In this document: positions 17 to 24,000 of the stretch, one piece after another
Position numbering within the stretch: the first letter of the stretch is position 1
Layout: each line of letters starts with the position of its first letter
Assembly (NCBI RefSeq): GCF_001183965.1
Contig: NZ_LFZV01000001.1
Location: forward strand, 1,198,438-1,222,437
Length of the DNA: 24,000 nucleotides
From: Bacillus sp. FJAT-27916
Lineage (GTDB): Bacteria > Bacillota > Bacilli > Bacillales > Pradoshiaceae
Direction of reading: 5' to 3'
Notes under the pieces: generated by a model
Told to the model about the DNA's origin: nothing
The model's database searches: none
The model's input: only the letters and a program-made list of their open reading frames with translations
Position numbers and translations under genes: made by a program

Positions 17-2440
17 ATGATCGATCGCTATTCGTTTAAGGATACGGAGAAGCTTACGCTTGCCAATGGGGACTTCGTTGTCTTGACGATCAAGGAAGAT
101 CCAAAATTCCCAGCCCGCGGACTAGGATATATTCAAGAAATTGATTGGGAAAAGAAAACAGCCCATGTGCTTGTAGAAGAAGAATACAGAGCTTCGTTGG
201 ACAAGCATGATGAAATGAAAACAGGTTTGATTTGCAAGTCGCTTGATGTCATTGAAAAGCCGCTTGAGATTTACTATGAGCAAATCGCCAAACGCAATGC
301 GCGCGGTTTGGCACAAGTGGAGAAGACAGAAGAGAAGCGTCAGGAATCCTTTGAGAGATTCTATCAGCAATTGGTTCAAACAAACTTTATCCCTGCTGGC
401 CGTGTGCTGTATGGAGCTGGATCGGAGACAGAGGTGACATATTTTAACTGTTACGTTATGCCGTTCATCAAGGACAGCCGTGAGGGTATCTCTGAACACC
501 GCAAGCAAGTTATGGAAATTATGAGCAGAGGCGGCGGAGTAGGTACAAACGGTTCTACCTTGCGTCCACGAAACACCCTTGCCCGTGGTGTTAACGGCAA
601 ATCCTCGGGAGCGGTTTCCTGGCTTGATGATATCGCGAAGCTGACTCATTTGGTCGAACAAGGCGGTTCACGTCGCGGTGCGCAAATGATTATGCTTGCT
701 GACTGGCATCCCGATATTGTTGAGTTCATCATCTCTAAGATGCAAAATCCGAAAATCCTGCGCTTCTTGATGGAAGTATCAGAAGATGAGACGATTCAAA
801 GGCTGGCTGCAGAGAAATTAAAATTCACACCTCTTTCCATTCAGGAACAAGCCATGTATCAGGGAATCGTGAACTATAAGACCATTCCAGGACTAGGCGG
901 TTTCAGTGAAGCCATCATTCAAGAAGCAGAGGAAAAACTGGCGCACGGCGGCAATGACGCTGTCCATAATCCAGACTTCCTAACAGGTGCAAACATCTCT
1001 GTCTGCTTGACAAAGGAGTTCATGGATGCTGTTGAGAATGATGCTGAATATGAATTGCGCTTCCCTGATGTAGAATCCTACAGCCCAGAGGAAATGGAAA
1101 TCTATAATAATGAATGGGCGGATTGCGGAGACGTACGGGAGTGGGAAAAACGCGGCTATGGTGTGCGTGTTTACCGTAAAGTGAGAGCGAAGGAATTATG
1201 GAATTTAATTAATATTTGTGCTACTTACTCTGCGGAGCCTGGTATTTTCTTTATCGATAATGCCAATGACATGACTAATGCAAAGAGCTATGGACAAAAG
1301 GTCGTTGCGACAAACCCATGCGGTGAGCAGCCTTTAGCTCCTTATTCCGTATGTAACCTGGCAGCCGTGAACTTAGCGGAAATGACAGATAAGGACGCAA
1401 AAACGGTCAATTTCGATAAGCTGAAGGAAACGGTTAAAGTCGGTGTTCGCATGCAGGATAATGTCATTGATGCGACTCCATATTTCCTTGAAGAGAATAA
1501 ACGCCAAGCCTTGGGCGAAAGACGTGTCGGCCTTGGAGTTATGGGTCTTCATGATATGCTCATCTACTGTGAGAAAGAATACGGCTCAAAAGACGGCAAT
1601 GAGCTTGTTGACCGTGTATTTGAAACAATTGCGACTGCAGCCTATGAGGAATCCATTGAACTCGCTAAGGAGAAGGGAAGCTTCCCATTCTTGGTTGGAG
1701 ATACTGAGGAAGAAACAAAAGCATTGCGTGAAGCCTTTATTCAATCCGGCTTCATGAAGAAAATGCCGGAGCATATCCGTCAAGATATTCTCAAATATGG
1801 AATTCGCAACTCTCACCTGCTTACTGTTGCACCGACAGGAAGCACGGGAACGATGGTAGGAGTATCGACAGGACTTGAGCCATACTTCTCCTTCACTTAC
1901 TTCAGAAGCGGACGACTCGGTAAATTCATTGAAGTAAAAGCGGATATCGTAGAGGACTACTTGGCGCGCAATCCTGAGGCAGATCCTCATAACCTTCCGG
2001 AATGGTTTGTATCTGCGATGGATCTCACTCCTGAGAAACATGCGGATGTACAGTGCATTATCCAGCGCTGGATCGACAGCTCCATCAGTAAGACGGTTAA
2101 TGCTCCGAAGGGCTACTCTGTCGAACAGGTTGAGAAAGTGTACGAGCGTCTTTATAGAGGCGGAGCAAAAGGCGGTACCGTGTATGTGGACGGAAGCCGT
2201 GACACGCAAGTCTTGACTTTGAAGAAGGAAGAGAGTACCGAGACAGCTGAAATGCCAAAGGAAAGAACGGAACAGCATGTCGTGCTAGTTGACACCATCA
2301 ATGCGCTTGAATCAACGAGCGTCACTATTGGAAGCGAAGTCGGCAACACTTGTCCGGTTTGCCGAAAAGGCAAGGTTGAGGAGCTTGGCGGCTGCAATAC
2401 CTGCACGAACTGCGGCGCGCAGCTGAAATGCGGATTGTAA
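17..2440 (+). CDS. nrdJ: Adenosylcobalamin-dependent (class II) ribonucleotide reductase with C-terminal Cys-rich zinc-finger tail
   Basis: 807-aa ORF with RNR core motifs in the translation: ATNPCGEQPL active-site Cys/Glu loop, LTVAPTGSTG and SISKTVNAP. The C-terminus CPVCRKG...CNTCTNCG is the Cys-rich finger common in class II RNRs. The frame stays open back to position 2 and no SD is visible in the 16 nt before ATG 17. The real start may therefore lie upstream of the window. Confidence 0.88.
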   Translation: MIDRYSFKDTEKLTLANGDFVVLTIKEDPKFPARGLGYIQEIDWEKKTAHVLVEEEYRASLDKHDEMKTGLICKSLDVIEKPLEIYYEQIAKRNARGLAQVEKTEEKRQESFERFYQQLVQTNFIPAGRVLYGAGSETEVTYFNCYVMPFIKDSREGISEHRKQVMEIMSRGGGVGTNGSTLRPRNTLARGVNGKSSGAVSWLDDIAKLTHLVEQGGSRRGAQMIMLADWHPDIVEFIISKMQNPKILRFLMEVSEDETIQRLAAEKLKFTPLSIQEQAMYQGIVNYKTIPGLGGFSEAIIQEAEEKLAHGGNDAVHNPDFLTGANISVCLTKEFMDAVENDAEYELRFPDVESYSPEEMEIYNNEWADCGDVREWEKRGYGVRVYRKVRAKELWNLINICATYSAEPGIFFIDNANDMTNAKSYGQKVVATNPCGEQPLAPYSVCNLAAVNLAEMTDKDAKTVNFDKLKETVKVGVRMQDNVIDATPYFLEENKRQALGERRVGLGVMGLHDMLIYCEKEYGSKDGNELVDRVFETIATAAYEESIELAKEKGSFPFLVGDTEEETKALREAFIQSGFMKKMPEHIRQDILKYGIRNSHLLTVAPTGSTGTMVGVSTGLEPYFSFTYFRSGRLGKFIEVKADIVEDYLARNPEADPHNLPEWFVSAMDLTPEKHADVQCIIQRWIDSSISKTVNAPKGYSVEQVEKVYERLYRGGAKGGTVYVDGSRDTQVLTLKKEESTETAEMPKERTEQHVVLVDTINALESTSVTIGSEVGNTCPVCRKGKVEELGGCNTCTNCGAQLKCGL

Positions 2441-2539: not shown

Positions 2540-3568
2540 TTGAAACCATTCATTCCTCAACTGGTCTATTTTGAGCCTAAGGCTTTAGACTATCCATTAG
2601 GTCAAGAACTATGGGAGAAATTCCGGACAATGCCGAATGTTGAGATCCGCCAGACAACCTCCCATAATCAAATTAGGGACCTTCCTGGAGAAACGGAACT
2701 GCAGAAATATCGAATAGCCAAATCGACGATGGTGGTAGGCTTGAGGAAAACCTTGAAATTCGATACCTCCAAGCCATCAGCAGAATATGCTATCCCGCTT
2801 GCGACAGGCTGTATGGGTCATTGTCATTACTGTTATTTGCAGACGACACTTGGGAGCAAACCGTATATACGCGTGTATGTTAATCTGGAGGAGATTTTTT
2901 ACAAAGCACTCACCTATATAGGTGAACGTGCACCAGAGATTACCCGCTTTGAGGCAGCCTGTACGTCAGACATTGTCGGTATTGATCATTTAACCCATTC
3001 ATTGAAAAAGGCAATAAATTTTTTCGGGGAAACTGAGCTTGGACGCTTACGTTTTGTGACGAAATTTCATCATGTCGATCATTTGCTTGATGCACGGCAT
3101 AATGGACATACGAGCTTCCGATTCTCCATTAATTCCCGCTATGTCATCAAGAATTTCGAACCGGGTACGTCCTCGTTTGATGAAAGGCTGGAGGCGGCCA
3201 GAAAGGTAGCAGCAGCCGGTTATCATTTAGGATTTATCGTAGCCCCCATCTATATGCATGATGAGTGGGAGGAGGGCTATGCGGAGCTGTTTGACCGGCT
3301 CAAAAAGGCGCTGGGGGAATATGCGGATCTTCCGCTTTATTTTGAACTCATCCAGCACCGTTTCACAAAGCCGGCCAAAAAGGTTATTGAGGCCAGATAT
3401 CCGAAATCAAAACTTGAGATGGATGAAACGAAACGAAAATATAAATGGGGCAAGTACGGGATTGGAAAATATGTTTACCCGGATGATGAGGCTGCCCGTT
3501 TAAGAAGTCATATTGAAGAATCTATCCAAGCTCACTTTCCGCAGGCAGAAATTAAATACTTTACCTAA
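2540..3568 (+). CDS. splB: Spore photoproduct lyase (radical SAM)
   Basis: 342 aa, near-colinear with B. subtilis SplB as I recall it (PQLVY.EP.AL.YPLGQEL, TSHNQ, FVTKFHHVDHLLDA.HNG, ELIQHRFTKPAK, KYFT end). The radical-SAM motif is CMGHCHYCY. TTG start at 2540 is preceded by AGGTAGGTGAG. Confidence 0.95.
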   Translation: MKPFIPQLVYFEPKALDYPLGQELWEKFRTMPNVEIRQTTSHNQIRDLPGETELQKYRIAKSTMVVGLRKTLKFDTSKPSAEYAIPLATGCMGHCHYCYLQTTLGSKPYIRVYVNLEEIFYKALTYIGERAPEITRFEAACTSDIVGIDHLTHSLKKAINFFGETELGRLRFVTKFHHVDHLLDARHNGHTSFRFSINSRYVIKNFEPGTSSFDERLEAARKVAAAGYHLGFIVAPIYMHDEWEEGYAELFDRLKKALGEYADLPLYFELIQHRFTKPAKKVIEARYPKSKLEMDETKRKYKWGKYGIGKYVYPDDEAARLRSHIEESIQAHFPQAEIKYFT

Positions 3569-3642
3569 ACCGTTCTAAAATGCACTCCTACTGCTTAAAG
3601 ATGATAAGTAAGCGAGAACATCTTGGGAGGGAGTGCATCGGT

Positions 3643-4545
3643 TTGTACATAGATGGTGTTTTCTGCGGCGGGGGAATCAAAGGATTTGCCCTTATCGGTG
3701 CCGTGATGGAGCTGGAGCAGCAGGGATACACGTTTAAACGTGTAGCGGGAACAAGTGCAGGCTCCATTATTGCTGGATTTCTCGCGGCTGGATACAGTGG
3801 TGCTGAGATTAAGCTCTTAATGGAGGATGTTGAGCTCAGCCGGTTATTGGAATCGAAGAAACGGATCCAATTTCCTTTTGCCCGCTGGTTGAAATTATAT
3901 TGGACGATGGGTTTATATAAAGGAGATGCCCTAGAGTGCTGGATCAAGGAAATTCTTGAGAAAAAAGGGATTCATACTTTCGGAGATCTTTCAGATAAGC
4001 AGCTGCGTATCATTGCCTCCGACCTATCAAATGGGCGTATGCTTATATTGCCTGATGATCTTGCTGCCTATAATATTGAACCGAAACAGTTCCCTGTCGC
4101 AAAAGCGATTCGGATGAGCTGCTCCATTCCCTTTTTCTTTGAGCCGATCAAGCTGAAAACAGTCGGGGAAAAATACATTGTCGTCGATGGCGGGGTGTTG
4201 AGTAATTTTCCGATGTGGTTATTTGATCAGGATAATATTAATCCTATCAGACCAGTACTTGGTCTTAATTTAGTTCATGAGAAGACAGAGAAGAGCAAAG
4301 AGGAAATCACGAATGCGATTGGTCTTTTTTCTTCTCTTTTTGAAACGATGCGTAATGCACATGATTCTCGTTATATCTCACGTAAGTTTGTCAAAAATAT
4401 TATTTTTATCCCAGTGAAGGATGCAGGTTTTATTGAGTTCTCGCTGACAGATGAGCAAAGGACAGGACTGGTTGAAAGCGGACGGAGGGCTGCGGCTCAG
4501 TTCGTCAAACATTGGACGCATCGAATAAAGAAGAAAATGAATTAA
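3643..4545 (+). CDS. yqhO: Patatin-like phospholipase (YqhO-like)
   Basis: Patatin motifs are present: GGGIKG oxyanion loop, GTSAG nucleophile elbow (GxSxG) and VVDGG catalytic Asp. I prefer TTG 3643, which lies ~9 nt after GGGAGGGAG (3625-3633). The ORF track starts at 3580, and ATG 3601 is another option. Both upstream starts lack an SD. Confidence 0.85.
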   Translation: MYIDGVFCGGGIKGFALIGAVMELEQQGYTFKRVAGTSAGSIIAGFLAAGYSGAEIKLLMEDVELSRLLESKKRIQFPFARWLKLYWTMGLYKGDALECWIKEILEKKGIHTFGDLSDKQLRIIASDLSNGRMLILPDDLAAYNIEPKQFPVAKAIRMSCSIPFFFEPIKLKTVGEKYIVVDGGVLSNFPMWLFDQDNINPIRPVLGLNLVHEKTEKSKEEITNAIGLFSSLFETMRNAHDSRYISRKFVKNIIFIPVKDAGFIEFSLTDEQRTGLVESGRRAAAQFVKHWTHRIKKKMN

Positions 4546-13822: not shown

Positions 13823-13829
13823 ATCAATA

Positions 13830-13890
13830 AAACAGTTGAATGAACAGGTGGAAAGGCCGATTTGGTTTTTCAATCTGTTTTTTCTTTTTG
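13830..13890 (+). terminator. Weak terminator-like hairpin after spoIIIAH
   Basis: AAACAGTTGAA (13830-13840) pairs imperfectly with TTCAATCTGTTT (13869-13880). The loop is large (~28 nt). TTTTTCTTTTT follows. Confidence 0.35.
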
Positions 13891-14128
13891 GGGTAAAGGT
13901 TTCGACCGGCTGTGTTGAAGGAGCGTATAACAAACCTTGCAGGGAATTAGAGTATGTACCCTCCCGCTCCATCTTGGCCGTTATTACGTAAATAATCTTT
14001 ATTAAATCTTTTCGAATAAGCTAATATTTCCGCCTAACTGTTTTTCTGCGAAAGAGTAAGGTGGCTAGGCAGTCATGAGAGAGTGAAAAAAATTATAAAT
14101 GTGTAGAGTTATGTGTCAAAAGTTTTTT

Positions 14129-14157
14129 TTGACATTGACTATTTATATAACAATATT
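14129..14157 (+). promoter_or_regulatory. Candidate sigma-A promoter (distal) in spoIIIAH-accB spacer
   Basis: Perfect TTGACA (14129-14134), a 17-nt spacer, then AATATT (14152-14157, 4/6 to TATAAT). The TTGACA is part of an inverted repeat TGTCAAAA/TTTTGACA. Confidence 0.3.
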
Positions 14158-14158
14158 T

Positions 14159-14177
14159 TTTAATGATAATCATTATA
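14159..14177. promoter_or_regulatory. Fur-box-like operator (perfect 7-1-7 palindrome TAATGAT-A-ATCATTA)
   Basis: TTTAATGATAATCATTATA matches the classical 19-bp Fur consensus GATAATGATAATCATTATC at 16/19 positions, counted by hand. The internal 15 nt (14161-14175) form a perfect inverted repeat. The site starts 2 nt after the distal candidate -10. Confidence 0.35.
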
Positions 14178-14247
14178 TTTATATATAAAATTTTGGCAGT
14201 TTTAAAGCAGAGAAGTTCCTGGGCTGCTGATATCAGTCTTTTAACCG

Positions 14248-14276
14248 TTCACTTTTCTGCCAAAAAATATTATGAT
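14248..14276 (+). promoter_or_regulatory. Candidate sigma-A promoter (proximal) for accBC
   Basis: TTCACT (14248-14253), a 17-nt spacer, then TATGAT (14271-14276). It lies ~75 nt upstream of the accB start. Confidence 0.35.
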
Positions 14277-14348
14277 AGGCTTATATGGTATTTTTTACAT
14301 ATTCATGCTTTTATGAATTATTTTGTAAATAACTAGGAGGGCTGAATC

Positions 14349-19873: not shown

Positions 19874-20764
19874 GTGGCAGAGCTGCTGGAGGCCTTTTCT
19901 CGAGAATATAAGCGAAAGATTGAAGAGAGAATGAAGGGTATTGTCTCTGATTTGAATACGCCTGAAAACCTAAGGTCTGCCATGAATTATTCATTGGAGG
20001 CAGGAGGGAAAAGACTTCGCCCGCTGCTTGTTCTTGCTGTATTGCGTGCATTTGGGAAAAATCCGCTGATTGGTCTTGATACGGCCTGTGCGATTGAAAT
20101 GATTCATACGTATTCATTAATACATGACGATTTGCCGAGCATGGATGACGACGACCTGCGCCGAGGTAAGCCGACTAATCATAAGGTGTATGGCGAGGCA
20201 ACAGCGATCCTTGCTGGCGATGGATTACTCACCCTAGCTTTTGGGGTGATTGCTAACCAAGAGCAAGCTCGGCAGAACCCGGCCGTTGCCCTTGAATTGG
20301 TTGCTGAGCTTTCCAAGGCTGCGGGTGCAGAAGGAATGGTCGGCGGGCAGGTTGCTGATATGGAAGGTGAAATGAGGAACTTGAGTTTATCAGAGCTTGA
20401 ATACATCCATGTACATAAAACTGGTAAACTGTTATCCTACAGCATTCTTGCAGGGGCCATTTTAGCTGGTGCTGATGATTGGGAGAAGGAGCATTTGCAG
20501 ACGTATGCCCATCATCTTGGACTTGCCTTTCAAATCAGGGACGATATCCTCGATATCGAAGGAAGCGAAAGCAAGATTGGCAAGCCGGTGGGAAGTGATG
20601 AAACGAATCATAAGAGCACCTATCCTTCTCTCCTTTCCATGGAGGGGGCTAAGGAGAAGCTGGGTTTCCATGTTAATATGGCAAATGAAGCGCTCGGAAA
20701 TACTAATTTCCAAGCCGGCATATTAGCTGAAATGCTGGAATTAGTTGCAAAAAGAGACCATTGA
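19874..20764 (+). CDS. ispA: Farnesyl-diphosphate synthase ((2E,6E)-FPP synthase)
   Basis: 296 aa with the first Asp-rich motif IHDDLPSMDDDDLRRG and the second FQIRDDILD. GTG start follows GAGGAGGA. Confidence 0.93.
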   Translation: MAELLEAFSREYKRKIEERMKGIVSDLNTPENLRSAMNYSLEAGGKRLRPLLVLAVLRAFGKNPLIGLDTACAIEMIHTYSLIHDDLPSMDDDDLRRGKPTNHKVYGEATAILAGDGLLTLAFGVIANQEQARQNPAVALELVAELSKAAGAEGMVGGQVADMEGEMRNLSLSELEYIHVHKTGKLLSYSILAGAILAGADDWEKEHLQTYAHHLGLAFQIRDDILDIEGSESKIGKPVGSDETNHKSTYPSLLSMEGAKEKLGFHVNMANEALGNTNFQAGILAEMLELVAKRDH

Positions 20765-20811
20765 TTGCCCATCGTTTCCACTGACATCCACTTACGTCCA
20801 TTTAAGTTGTG

Positions 20812-20820
20812 TGCTATACT
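20812..20820 (+). promoter_or_regulatory. Extended -10 (TGcTATACT), candidate promoter for the OLE RNA gene
   Basis: TGnTATACT lies at 20812-20820. The -35 region is poor (TTACGT). Read-through from ispA is equally possible because no terminator follows ispA. Confidence 0.35.
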
Positions 20821-20824
20821 AATT

Positions 20825-21456
20825 GTACATTTCGAGTGGTGCAGTATTCTAGTCGGTCTACCGTTCTGGAGGGTGAGGCTAAAAATTCACTAGAGGGCAC
20901 ATCGATGAAGTTCGTTGGATTGGCTCGGAGCGCCCAGCTTTGGGTCGGTCCAGGGAGTAAGGAATTAGGGCGATCCACAATGGCATGTGGGCGATGACCC
21001 TGATTCCGCGGAGGCTTTATTCTCCTTTTGCAAGGGGGATATTGAAAAACCTGCATATCAGGAAACTGCGTGCAGCGTAGCCTGCCTTGAGTGAAGTATG
21101 AGGGGATTGCGTACTAGGCATATACATCAGTTGGCCATTGATATATTTGCTGGTCTGTCATGCATGAAATCTGCTTTGCAAAAGAGGCTAAGGAATTGGT
21201 TAAAGGCCGCCGGGGAAATCCCCTAGACTGTTCGTTCAATGACATATATAGAGGATTAAGGTGCGGACTAAGTGGCAATCCAGTCCAGCTTTCGGAGACG
21301 GGGCTGAGTTGGCTTTAAAGGGAAACCGCCGAGATGGCGACATTCGGCAGCTGATTGGGAAATCCTACTGGACCTAAGCCGTAAAATTAACTCTATTTAT
21401 GGCCACTCGTTTCTATACGAAAAGAACAAAGCTTGCGCTTAGCAAGCTTTATTTTA
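20825..21456 (+). ncRNA. ole: OLE (ornate, large, extremophilic) RNA, boundaries approximate
   Basis: The ~630-nt gap between ispA and a 4-TM protein gene plus dxs is the canonical OLE genomic context. It contains only short, mutually overlapping ORFs on both strands, and none has an SD. GC is higher than in other spacers of the window.
Local helices:
- 20975-79/20986-90
- 21010-13/21022-25
- 21118-29/21139-50
- 21212-15/21220-23
- 21265-69/21282-86
- 21328-32/21344-48
A possible closing helix pairs 20833-40 with 21402-09. A terminal hairpin with U-tail lies at 21428-21456. I could not run a covariance model. Confidence 0.7.
21428..21456 (+). terminator. Hairpin + U-tail at the 3' end of the OLE region
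   Basis: AAAGCTTGC (21428-21436) pairs with GCAAGCTTT (21442-21450). The loop is GCTTA and ATTTTA follows. It is probably leaky, since oapA and dxs lie directly downstream. Confidence 0.55.
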
Positions 21457-21482
21457 CATACAGGATGTGTCTTACTTACAAC

Positions 21483-22094
21483 ATGAAGGAAACTCTAAAG
21501 AAGACAGCGAAATGGACAATTACGATCTCAATCATTACATTTATATTAGCAGCTATCTTTACCGTGGCCTCTACGCTTTCCTTAAAGGGGGTAAGCTTTA
21601 GTGTTGGTCTTGCGATTGTACTTGTCATTGTACTAATTGGCATATTCTTTGATATGATTGGAATTGCAGCAACCGCCGCAGATGAAACGCCCTTTCATGC
21701 AATGGCATCGAAGCGGATTCACGGCGCGAAGCATTCCATTCGGATTATACGGAATGCAGACCGATTCGCGAGCTTTTGCAATGATGTGATTGGTGATATC
21801 TCTGGGATTGTAAGCGGGACAGCGGCTGCCCTCGTTATTACGCAGCTGGCTCTTCGTTTCCAATGGGGCGAAGCGTCTCCATCAGAGAGTATCAGTTCCA
21901 TCGTTCTGACGAGTACGATCGCAGCATTAACCGTCGGAGGCAAAGCGATGGGAAAGACATTTGCCATCCAGCATTCTAAAGATATTATCTTTGGAGTCGG
22001 AAAAATGTTATCCTTTCTTGAGCGAAACTTCCAAATTGTTATAATAAAAGAAAATAGGGGCAAAACGACTCAAAAGAATACGAAACGAAAGTGA
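21483..22094 (+). CDS. oapA: OLE-associated protein A (four-TM membrane protein)
   Basis: 203 aa from MKETLKK, with four predicted TM helices and a Lys/Arg-rich C-terminal tail (KENRGKTTQKNTKRK). It lies immediately downstream of the OLE-like RNA and abuts dxs. The track start at 21399 would translate through the 21428-21456 hairpin. ATG 21465 is another option. No strong SD precedes any of the three candidate starts. Confidence 0.7.
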   Translation: MKETLKKTAKWTITISIITFILAAIFTVASTLSLKGVSFSVGLAIVLVIVLIGIFFDMIGIAATAADETPFHAMASKRIHGAKHSIRIIRNADRFASFCNDVIGDISGIVSGTAAALVITQLALRFQWGEASPSESISSIVLTSTIAALTVGGKAMGKTFAIQHSKDIIFGVGKMLSFLERNFQIVIIKENRGKTTQKNTKRK

Positions 22095-23999
22095 GTGATC
22101 CTGTTGGATCTATTGTCTATAAAGGACCCATCTTTTTTAAAGAAGATGACAAACGCAGAACTTGAAGCGTTGTCACAGGAAATAAGAACATTTTTGATTG
22201 AGCAGCTGTCAAAGACCGGCGGGCATATCGGCCCAAACCTAGGGGTAGTTGAACTTACCATTGCCTTGCATAAGGAGTTTAACAGCCCAAAGGATAAATT
22301 GTTATGGGATGTCGGCCACCAAAGCTATGTACACAAAATATTGACCGGACGCGCAAGCCAATTTGATACACTCCGTCAATACAAAGGACTGTGCGGCTTT
22401 CCAAAGATGAACGAAAGCAAGCATGATGTATGGGAAACAGGTCATAGCTCAACCTCCTTGTCGGCGGCGATGGGAATGGCCATTGCCCGGGATTTAAAAA
22501 AGGAGAAAAGCTATATTGTGCCTATTATCGGAGATGGTGCCCTGACAGGCGGCATGGCGCTTGAAGCCCTTAATCATATCGGCCATGAGAAAAAGGATAT
22601 GATTGTGGTCCTAAATGATAATGAAATGTCTATCGCACCGAATGTCGGTGCCCTGCACTCCATTCTTGGCCGGATGAGAACAGCCGGGAAGTATAATTAT
22701 GTCAAAGACGAACTGGAGCTTCTTCTTAAGAAAATCCCTGCAGTCGGCGGTAAGCTTGCAACTACAGCTGAACGCGTGAAGGATTCCCTTAAGTATCTCT
22801 TAGTGAGCGGAATGTTTTTCGAGGAGCTTGGGTTTACGTATCTCGGACCTGTTGATGGACATAACTTTGATGAATTATCTGAAAACCTAAAATATGCTAA
22901 AAAGACGAAAGGCCCTGTTTTGCTTCATGTGATTACGAAGAAGGGCAAAGGCTATGATCCTGCTGAAACGGATGCCGTAGGAACTTGGCATGGGACGGGT
23001 CCATATAAGATGGAAACTGGGGACATTATTAAGGAAGTCAATGCTCCTCCAGCTTGGAGTGCACTCGTCAGTGAAACTGTCAGACGGCTTGCACGCGAGG
23101 ATGACCGTATAGTTGCCATTACACCGGCGATGCCGGTAGGCTCTAAGCTTCTTGGGTTTGCTAGTGAATTCCCGGATAGAATGTTTGATGTCGGCATTGC
23201 GGAGCAGCATGCCACCACCGTTGCAGCCGGGCTTGCGACTCAAGGGATGAAGCCATTTTTAGCCATCTATTCTACGTTCCTTCAGCGTGCCTATGACCAA
23301 ATGCTGCATGACATTTGCCGCCAGAAATTAAATGTCTTTGTCGGGATCGATCGTGCCGGCCTTGTCGGTGCTGATGGAGAGACACATCAAGGGGTATTTG
23401 ATATATCCTTCCTGCGTTCAATGCCGAATCTAGTGCTGATGATGCCTAAAGATGAGAATGAAGGGCAGCATATGGTTAATACAGCTATTAAATATAATGA
23501 TGGTCCAATCGCGATGCGCTTCCCAAGAGGAAATGGTCTTGGTGTTGAGATGGATGAAGAATTAGAAATTATTCCAATCGGCACATGGGAAGTCCTTCGA
23601 GAAGGGAAGGATGCTGTTATTTTAACATTTGGAACGACTATTCCAATGGCGCTTGAAGCGGCAGAGGCAATGGCTCAGAAAGGCGTACAAGTTAAGGTCG
23701 TCAATGCTCGTTTCATCAAACCGCTTGATGCAGCTATGCTCTCTGAAATCTTGGCATCCAATCTTCCAATTCTCACTATTGAGGAGGCTGTCCTTGAAGG
23801 CGGGTTTGGCAGTGCCGTTTTAGAATTCGCTGAGGAGCACAGCTTTTCCCAAGCATATATTAAACGGATGGGAATTCCTGATGAATTTGTTGAACATGGC
23901 AGCGTAAGCAGGCTTCTTGCAGATATTCACTTGACTACAGAAGCTGCCATTGAACATTTAACGAAAATGACCTATAAAGAAACGAAAAAGGCGTATTAA
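22095..23999 (+). CDS. dxs: 1-deoxy-D-xylulose-5-phosphate synthase
   Basis: 634 aa with very high similarity to B. subtilis Dxs as I recall it ([41 protein letters not shown] thiamin-diphosphate motif, GIAEQHA). GTG 22095 directly abuts the oapA stop. TTG 22104 would reproduce the B. subtilis-like MDLLSI N-terminus. Confidence 0.96.
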
Positions 24000-24000
24000 A

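Follow-up and report, generated by a model that had tools for sequence, protein, structure and literature searches.

OLE RNAs rank among the largest structured RNAs of bacteria without an assigned biochemical function; they are about 600 nt in length, with roughly 25% of their nucleotides nearly invariant (RF01071 family description). The experimental model of RF01071 is the OLE RNA of Halalkalibacterium (Bacillus) halodurans C-125, in which expression rises by a factor of more than 100 through a promoter directly upstream of ole, and the 5' ends of the RNA lie near the start of helix P1 (PMC3413148). Binding of the protein OapB requires the GNRA loop of P13 and a single-nucleotide bulge, with P14.1 as a secondary site (PMC7936274), while OapC requires a kink turn that includes the J4a/5 strand (PMC9723947); the essential C of this kink turn, one of the features by which an OLE is recognised, is C85 in B. 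halodurans. In cryo-electron microscopy (cryo-EM) structures the L4 loop forms an A-A bridge between the two RNAs of a dimer (PMC12286853, PMC12265935), and P3/P3.1, a stem of ~12 bp, has been proposed to span the membrane (PMC12265935). A DxxxD motif, missing from CNNM domains, is the distinctive feature of the third protein, OapA, for which a weak CNNM similarity and a relation to CorB/CorC have been published (PMC11332333). Here we describe the interval between ispA and oapA in a 24-kb stretch of DNA from Bacillus sp. FJAT-27916 (the whole stretch, 24,000 nt, is called the window below). Judged from sequence comparison, the window almost certainly holds a functional ole-oapA locus. No helix or motif conserved in the family is missing from its full-length OLE.

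The entire window was scanned on both strands against all 4227 Rfam families. RF01071 matched 20820-21422 of the + strand at 472.4 bits (gathering score 50, E 6.1e-136), end to end through model positions 1-616 of 616; a nhmmer search with an OLE profile placed the element at 20823-21418. No other Rfam family rose above its threshold in the window on either strand. A permissive Rfam scan also returned Noro_CRE inside xseA (24.9 bits, E 0.07), a viral element at chance level, which we rejected. An earlier note on this DNA, made from the letters alone, had proposed an OLE gene here and a covariance-model search as its check; that search gives the near-full-length + strand match that was predicted, with no match on the - strand. 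The note was likewise right to place the element in a described family and not in a new class: it is a member of an already known, well-described family with thousands of representatives and a curated model that picks it up with ease, not a discovery. The RNA gene measures 603 nt over the Rfam extent, or 577 nt between the outer ends of the P1 strands, and it sits among protein genes as follows.

20820-21422, + strand: OLE RNA gene (extent of the RF01071 match).
19874-20764, + strand: ispA, farnesyl diphosphate synthase, the upstream neighbour (NF045485, 430 bits).
21483-22094, + strand: oapA, a predicted 203-aa membrane protein with a DxxxD motif and a basic C-terminal tail (motif and synteny).
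22095-24000, + strand: dxs, the downstream neighbour, which continues to the window end (TIGR00204, 965 bits).

The gene order in the window is nusB-folD-xseA-xseB-ispA-ole-oapA-dxs, in keeping with the genes for isoprenoid synthesis, DNA repair and further housekeeping tasks among which members of the family are located. The spacer that holds ole (20765-21482, 718 nt) extends from the ispA stop codon (20764) to the oapA ATG (21483), and oapA starts 61 nt beyond the 3' limit of the Rfam match. A higher G+C than in the other spacers had been noticed from the letters and is confirmed by the counts: 0.469 versus 0.27-0.43 in the eleven other spacers of at least 40 nt, with 0.494 in the P1-to-P1 core against a coding average of 0.45. 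The host, within Bacillota, is a Pradoshia-like member of the Bacillaceae. Its closest species representatives are an uncultured Bacillaceae metagenome-assembled genome (OLE 94% identical) and a Pradoshia sp. (85%), and a contig of GCA_051873915.1 differs from the window at 3 positions in 5518 overlapping nt. Gene calling on that near-identical contig left the OLE interval empty.

Relatives of the locus were found by a search with the 203-aa protein, keeping one genome per species, which yielded 80 loci, all from Bacillaceae-like genomes. Every one of these loci, retrieved through its OapA homologue, has an OLE immediately upstream. The nhmmer profile recovered an OLE adjacent to the OapA homologue in 81 of 81 sources, one of them interrupted by a contig end, and Rfam found a full-length OLE directly 5' of the OapA homologue gene in 20 of 20 diverse loci, with 469-548 bits. 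Of the 81 sources, 80 have ispA upstream in the same orientation and 74 have dxs downstream, and the ispA/oapA/dxs context that had been pointed to in the window is thus conserved among its relatives. For the analysis of structure, 21 OLEs were aligned by MAFFT without structural guidance; the mean column identity is 72%, and the long invariant blocks of this alignment are all present in the window.

Several lines of evidence indicate that the interval folds as an OLE. The Rfam consensus has 159 pairs, 153 of which map onto the window, and 143 of the 153 are canonical there. The region has a minimum free energy z of -4.1 and folds better than 20 of 20 dinucleotide shuffles. Earlier reading of the letters had given at least six local hairpins, which holds and is an understatement. 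RNAalifold applied to the 21 OLEs returned 167 pairs, 72 of them with compensatory changes. We then scored a structure made up of the Rfam consensus, mapped via the window row, and the long-range helices (175 pairs in 27 helix segments), using as a control the same structure with its 3' partners slid by 1-3 columns. Across the 21 OLEs, standard pairs occupy 89.6% of cells versus 39-44% in the slid controls, changes on both sides are seen in 96 pairs versus 35-52, and none of 500 shuffles attains the observed pairing values. Covariation in homologous ispA-dxs spacers, on which the earlier proposal had been made to depend, is therefore strong. The helices that score low fall in the P7/P8 region, where MAFFT loses the register of stems of variable length. 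The long-range helices are formed by the following strands.

20833-20840, + strand: 5' strand of P1 (CGAGUGGU), which pairs with 21402-21409 (covariation test).
21402-21409, + strand: 3' strand of P1 (GCCACUCG) (covariation test).
20841-20852, + strand: 5' strand of P2 (GCAG-UAU-UCUAG), with its partner CUAGACUGU at 21223-21231 (helices 2 and 3).
20854-20867, + strand: 5' strand of P3 and P3.1, which pairs with 21192-21209, 13 bp in total (covariation).
21192-21209, + strand: 3' strand of P3.1 and P3 (covariation).

The first two of these strands had been suspected of forming a long-range closing helix. That helix is real and is the P1 of OLE: it consists of seven Watson-Crick pairs and one G-U in the window, and seven of its eight pairs could be followed across the 21 OLEs, where they are 100% paired and three of the seven covary, one position being AU in 10 sequences, GC in 10 and GU in one. 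P2 is invariant in the same 21 sequences, so that covariation is uninformative about it either way. For P3/P3.1, 94.7% of cells are paired, compared with 25-53% in slid controls; both partners have changed in 9 of its 13 pairs, and no shuffle out of 500 attains the observed value. Both P1 and P3/P3.1 lie outside the Rfam model, and both covary.

The elements to which the literature links a function are all intact in the window and are conserved in 70-80 of the 80 relatives. They are, from 5' to 3':

20872-20891, + strand: P4 hairpin with the A-rich loop CUAAAAAU at 20879-20886 (stem covaries, helix 5).
20895-20910, + strand: J4a/5 (GGGCACAUCGAUGAAG), the putative OapC kink-turn strand (motif in 79 of 80 loci).
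20911-20957, + strand: P5/P5.1 hairpin with loop GCCCA (helix 6: 19 pairs, 96% paired, 9 of which covary).
20961-21007, + strand: P6/P6.1 hairpin (helices 8 and 9).
21092-21176, + strand: P9 arm, whose terminal loop UUGGCCAU (21131-21138) contains the palindrome GGCC (helices 14-19).
21286-21306, + strand: P13 hairpin, capped by a GNRA loop (GAGA) and carrying one bulged U, the predicted OapB site (helix 25).
21328-21348, + strand: P14.1 hairpin with a GCGA loop, a predicted secondary OapB site (helix 27).

The A-rich L4 loop and the conserved GGCAUGUGGGCG of P6/P6.1 occur in all 80 loci, and the P5 loop GCCCA in 78. Within J4a/5, the putative kink-turn strand CACAUCGAUGAAG at 20898-20910 is conserved in 79 of 80 loci; RNAalifold pairs J4a/5 with J6/7, matching the cryo-EM model. 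P13 reads CAGCU-U-UCG[GAGA]CGGGGCUG at 21286-21306; seven of its eight pairs covary and its GNRA loop is found in 79 of the 80 loci. The central tetranucleotide of the P9 loop, scored in 71 of the 80 loci, is GGCC in 66, GATC in four and AGCT in one. Each of the three is palindromic, in keeping with a loop that kisses its counterpart in a second molecule, and palindrome switching in this loop was taken by Kretsch et al. as evidence of just such an intermolecular contact (PMC12286853).

Two hairpins between P6 and P9 set this OLE apart.

21017-21041, + strand: shortened P7 hairpin with a 10-bp stem and a UUGC loop (folds at -9.9 kcal/mol).
21051-21075, + strand: shortened P8 hairpin with a GAAA loop (comparison of region lengths).

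The P7 region of the window has 32 nt against a median of 48 and is the third shortest of 80, and the P8 region, with 27 nt against a median of 33, is the joint shortest. The window and its two closest relatives share these dimensions (P7 region 32-33 nt, P8 region 27-28 nt), and the P7 stem forms in the window and in both relatives (L001 and L002) despite differing sequences. P9 is normal at 85 nt, the range across loci being 78-90. According to published work, OLE varies mainly in P7/P8, a portion dispensable for the dimer contacts and absent from some variants. Two such variants were considered (Fernando & Breaker 2024), both of which share with the window a reduction of the P7-P8 region. 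In variant 1 (TANB77) P9 is shortened along with P7 and P8 and the OapB site is often missing, whereas the window has a full-length P9 and an intact site; variant 2 (RF39) is without P7 and P8 altogether, whereas the window keeps both as short hairpins. With P7 and P8 retained, P9 at 85 nt and P13 intact, assignment to either variant was ruled out. The OLE of the window, which lacks none of P7, P8, P9 and the OapB site, is therefore compact but full length.

Signals for the two ends of the RNA were sought on either side of the P1 strands.

20812-20820, + strand: extended -10 element TGcTATACT of ole (TGCTATACT), hexamer at 20815-20820 (sequence and conservation).
21428-21456, + strand: clade-specific 9-bp hairpin (AAAGCUUGC / GCAAGCUUU, stem 21428-21450) followed by AUUUUA (flagged as terminator-like in a scan).

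The extended -10 had been located from the letters with exact coordinates. All 80 homologous loci have a TGnTAnnnT element, mostly TGnTATAAT, whose best-placed match lies 19-31 nt (40 in locus L080) 5' of the conserved TGGTGCAG, with flanks that vary between genera. Transcription of ole probably starts near A20827, 6-7 nt 5' of P1, and the promoter-to-P1 geometry of the window agrees with that of B. halodurans. The ole promoter is absent from the output of a generic promoter scan because its -35 is poor. Where other genera have a -35-like TTGAG/ATTGAG, the window (20785-20800), L001 and L002 have a conserved CCACTTAC and retain the extended -10.

The 3' side is less uniform. A terminal hairpin with a U-tail had been described at 21428-21456; its stem is real and terminator-like, but its U-tract is weak, and it is a clade-specific feature, not a typical OLE terminator. 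Besides the window, only L001 and L002 have the hairpin; relatives differ in the length of the ole-oapA spacer (21 to 337 nt), and in only two of 80 loci is a hairpin followed there by a T-run. On these grounds the hairpin is probably a clade-specific leaky terminator or a protector of the 3' end. Elsewhere the same spacer takes other forms. In a Cytobacillus-like clade (L029, L033, L036, L039, L043) it is ~190 nt long instead of 21-66 nt, folds at -49 to -56 kcal/mol (for example L029, about 2815-3000) and contains a GAGGGG...CCCCUC hairpin directly 3' of OLE and a long stem that ends in the terminator-like GCCUCUUUUUCAUUC; the spacers of L029 and L036 gave no Rfam match. The spacer of 337 nt belongs to L078.

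The protein encoded directly downstream bears the DxxxD hallmark of OapA, here DVIGD at residues 101-105 (D101, D105), and among 81 homologues 79 have DVIGD and one has DVVGD. Hydropathy places hydrophobic segments near residues 12-30, 43-61 and 102-124, with a candidate fourth transmembrane helix that is weakly hydrophobic, and nine of the C-terminal 30 residues are K or R. PF01595 (CNNM) matches with 22.7 bits, under its cut-off of 28.4. An AlphaFold model was built from 37 sequences and has long helices at residues 2-34, 39-68, 82-127 and 133-163. The five best Foldseek matches of this model in the PDB are all CorB/CorC (CNNM) transmembrane domains (probability 0.63-0.92, TM-score about 0.35), whereas a sequence-profile search of the PDB with OapA gave chance matches only. 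No CBS domain was found in the 203-aa protein. NCBIfam holds no family that names OapA. The 4970 OapA homologues in public databases are labelled 'hypothetical', 'membrane protein' or 'CNNM family', and none of these entries is named OapA.

The starts of oapA and dxs have peculiarities of their own. No Shine-Dalgarno sequence stands at normal spacing before oapA, either in the window (21460-21485) or in most of the other loci. The sole Shine-Dalgarno-like element reads AGGA here and ACGGUGUGU in Rossellomorea and many others; its conserved position, 15-17 nt ahead of the oapA ATG, suggests an unusual or regulated initiation of oapA translation. The first in-frame start of dxs, a GTG at 22095, directly adjoins the oapA stop codon; in a near-identical NCBI contig (L081, 3610-3625) dxs is called three codons later, giving 631 versus 634 aa. 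With either dxs start, oapA and dxs lie close enough together for translational coupling.

Other readings of the interval have some observations in their favour. Because ole, oapA and dxs are tightly packed on one strand, no separate oapA promoter was identified, and the hairpin between ole and oapA has a short U-run, so that OLE is probably also the 5' part of an oapA transcript, the interval could be seen as a long structured cis-acting 5' leader, a riboswitch or attenuator of oapA-dxs, and not as an independent RNA. We regard this as very improbable: the interval matches over its full length a family proven by experiment to be a stable, abundant, trans-acting component of a ribonucleoprotein (RNP), its 600 nt, ~25 helices and dimer contacts far exceed any known leader, OLE stays constant while the spacer to oapA varies from 21 to 337 nt, and the permissive Rfam scan of the window matched no riboswitch family. 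That the interval is a decaying or non-functional remnant of an OLE would be suggested by Rfam scores at the bottom of the 21 scanned and by the short P7 region (32 nt versus a median of 48) and joint-shortest P8. The chance of this is smaller still, given that the invariant blocks, loop motifs and long-range helices are all intact, that 143 of 153 model pairs are canonical and that the promoter element and an intact oapA have been kept; the P7 stem moreover persists in the window, L001 and L002 though their sequences differ, and published natural OLE variants have short P7/P8 or none. The scores are low because P7 and P8 are short in this clade.

The possibility that the interval encodes protein is practically nil. 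Its open reading frames are a 62-aa frame on the + strand, an 80-aa frame on the - strand and a few of 42-54 aa, and the first two are what a small-protein reading would build on. Stops interrupt the 62-aa frame in 18 of 20 homologues and the 80-aa frame in 19 of 20, the latter being frameshifted already in L001, whose OLE is 94% identical in nucleotides. Variable sites fall evenly over the codon positions (27/23/29), with no 3-periodicity, and the changes are instead compensatory in RNA helices. The spacer had been described from the letters as free of genuine open reading frames, with shadow frames only, and a coding signature had been named as grounds for rejecting an OLE gene; the frames are indeed short and not conserved, and no such signature was found.

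On the preferred reading, that of a functional OLE gene followed by the gene for its membrane partner, ole would be transcribed from its own promoter, with a start a few nucleotides 5' of P1, into an abundant, stable RNA of ~580-630 nt. By analogy with characterised OLEs, this RNA would fold into domain 1 (P3-P9) and domain 2 (P1, P2, P10-P15) and may dimerise through the A-rich L4, the L5 and L6 loops and the P9 loop with its GGCC palindrome. Its tether to the cell membrane would be an OapA dimer, with the ~13-bp P3/P3.1 stem alongside OapA and, in the current model, spanning the bilayer; OapB would be bound at the GNRA loop and bulged U of P13 and OapC at the J4a/5 kink turn. The RNP is expected to aid tolerance of short-chain alcohols, cold, excess Mg2+ and poor carbon sources. 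Expression of oapA, and probably of dxs, would most likely depend on transcripts that read through the weak hairpin at 21428-21450.

Several points weigh against this reading. All of its mechanistic steps are transferred from work on H. halodurans and Clostridium. The genes oapB and oapC (ybxF) were not found, in a search limited to the 24-kb window; from published correlations, a genome with OLE is expected to have oapC and oapB, which encodes a KOW-motif protein, and to lack mpfA. The AlphaFold model of OapA is all-helical but of moderate confidence (predicted local distance difference test 65.6), and its CorB/CorC fold matches have E values of 0.15-0.7, which are not significant and therefore represent agreement with the literature, not proof. 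The weak U-tract of the 3' hairpin (AUUUUA) makes the 3' end of the RNA uncertain, and of the 21 OLEs scanned with Rfam the three lowest scores are those of the window and its two nearest relatives.

A more specific proposal can be made only tentatively, and we think it rather unlikely to hold as a whole. The clade of the window, MAG10 and Pradoshia might possess a naturally minimised yet fully functional OLE (P7 ~10 bp, P8 ~8 bp; P9 and the OapB, OapC and dimer elements retained), with its own terminator-like ole-oapA hairpin possibly setting the RNA:OapA ratio through partial termination. If this were true, neither P7 length nor any L7 dimer contact seen in the Clostridium cryo-EM structure would be essential in a free-living, spore-forming member of the Bacilli, and the clade would supply a compact OLE for structural work.

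Protein-only gene callers leave a 718-nt gap here, and public sources label the partner protein 'hypothetical' or 'CNNM family'; ole and oapA therefore deserve proper names. The window copy is otherwise an incremental data point that opens no new question: what it adds is a full-length OLE with compact P7/P8, from a Pradoshia-like host within the Bacillaceae, and a promoter element kept in all 80 related loci.

The remainder of the window and its surroundings provided some separate observations. The second-largest spacer (13823-14348, 526 nt, G+C 0.325) lies between the last spoIIIA-type open reading frame and accB and has no Rfam match, even at the permissive threshold. At 3580-4545 (+), between splB and a SA1362-family gene, is a 321-aa patatin-like phospholipase whose best NCBIfam matches include the CBASS cGAMP-activated and anti-phage phospholipases, all far under their cut-offs. 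A B12-dependent ribonucleotide reductase of the NrdJ type at 17-2440 (+) matches its NCBIfam model only from position 45; the frame begins at base 17 of the window, and its upstream region is outside. Past the window end, L081 (5520-6612) has a gene for an S4/FtsJ (TlyA-like) methyltransferase and argR beyond dxs; ArgR is named in a 2025 review as an unpublished OLE-binding protein.

Set beside the known systems, the locus resembles in organisation that of H. halodurans, which is outside the 80 relatives, the likeness being judged via the Rfam model. The two share P1-P14.1, the A-rich L4, the GGCC loop of P9, the J4a/5 strand and the GNRA loop and bulged U of P13, together with a proximal promoter before P1, an oapA directly downstream and the xseA-xseB-ispA ... 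dxs cluster. Unlike the H. halodurans OLE, that of the window has a shorter P7 and P8, a P13 loop of GAGA instead of GUGA and a clade-specific 3' hairpin, and its host, Pradoshia-like and within the Bacillaceae, is no alkaliphile. Pradoshia eiseniae itself was obtained from earthworm gut.

With the OLEs of Clostridium acetobutylicum and C. botulinum, known as cryo-EM dimers since 2025, the window has in common the L4 sequence CUAAAAAU, the L5 and L6 sequences and the palindromic L9.3, and the J4a/5-J6/7 pairing of those structures is also found in the RNAalifold consensus of the 21 OLEs. The host belongs to the class Bacilli, not Clostridia, and P7 is ~8 bp shorter than in the Clostridium OLEs; any L7 dimer contact of the Clostridium type would therefore have to differ. 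The probable nearest relatives of OapA are the CNNM Mg2+ transporters MpfA, CorB and CorC, to which it is connected by the weak PF01595 match, a predicted all-helical transmembrane domain and its top five, non-significant fold matches. In contrast to these, OapA is without CBS or CorC_HlyC cytosolic domains and has a predicted four transmembrane helices in place of three, and unlike CNNM domains it has the DxxxD motif and always adjoins ole.

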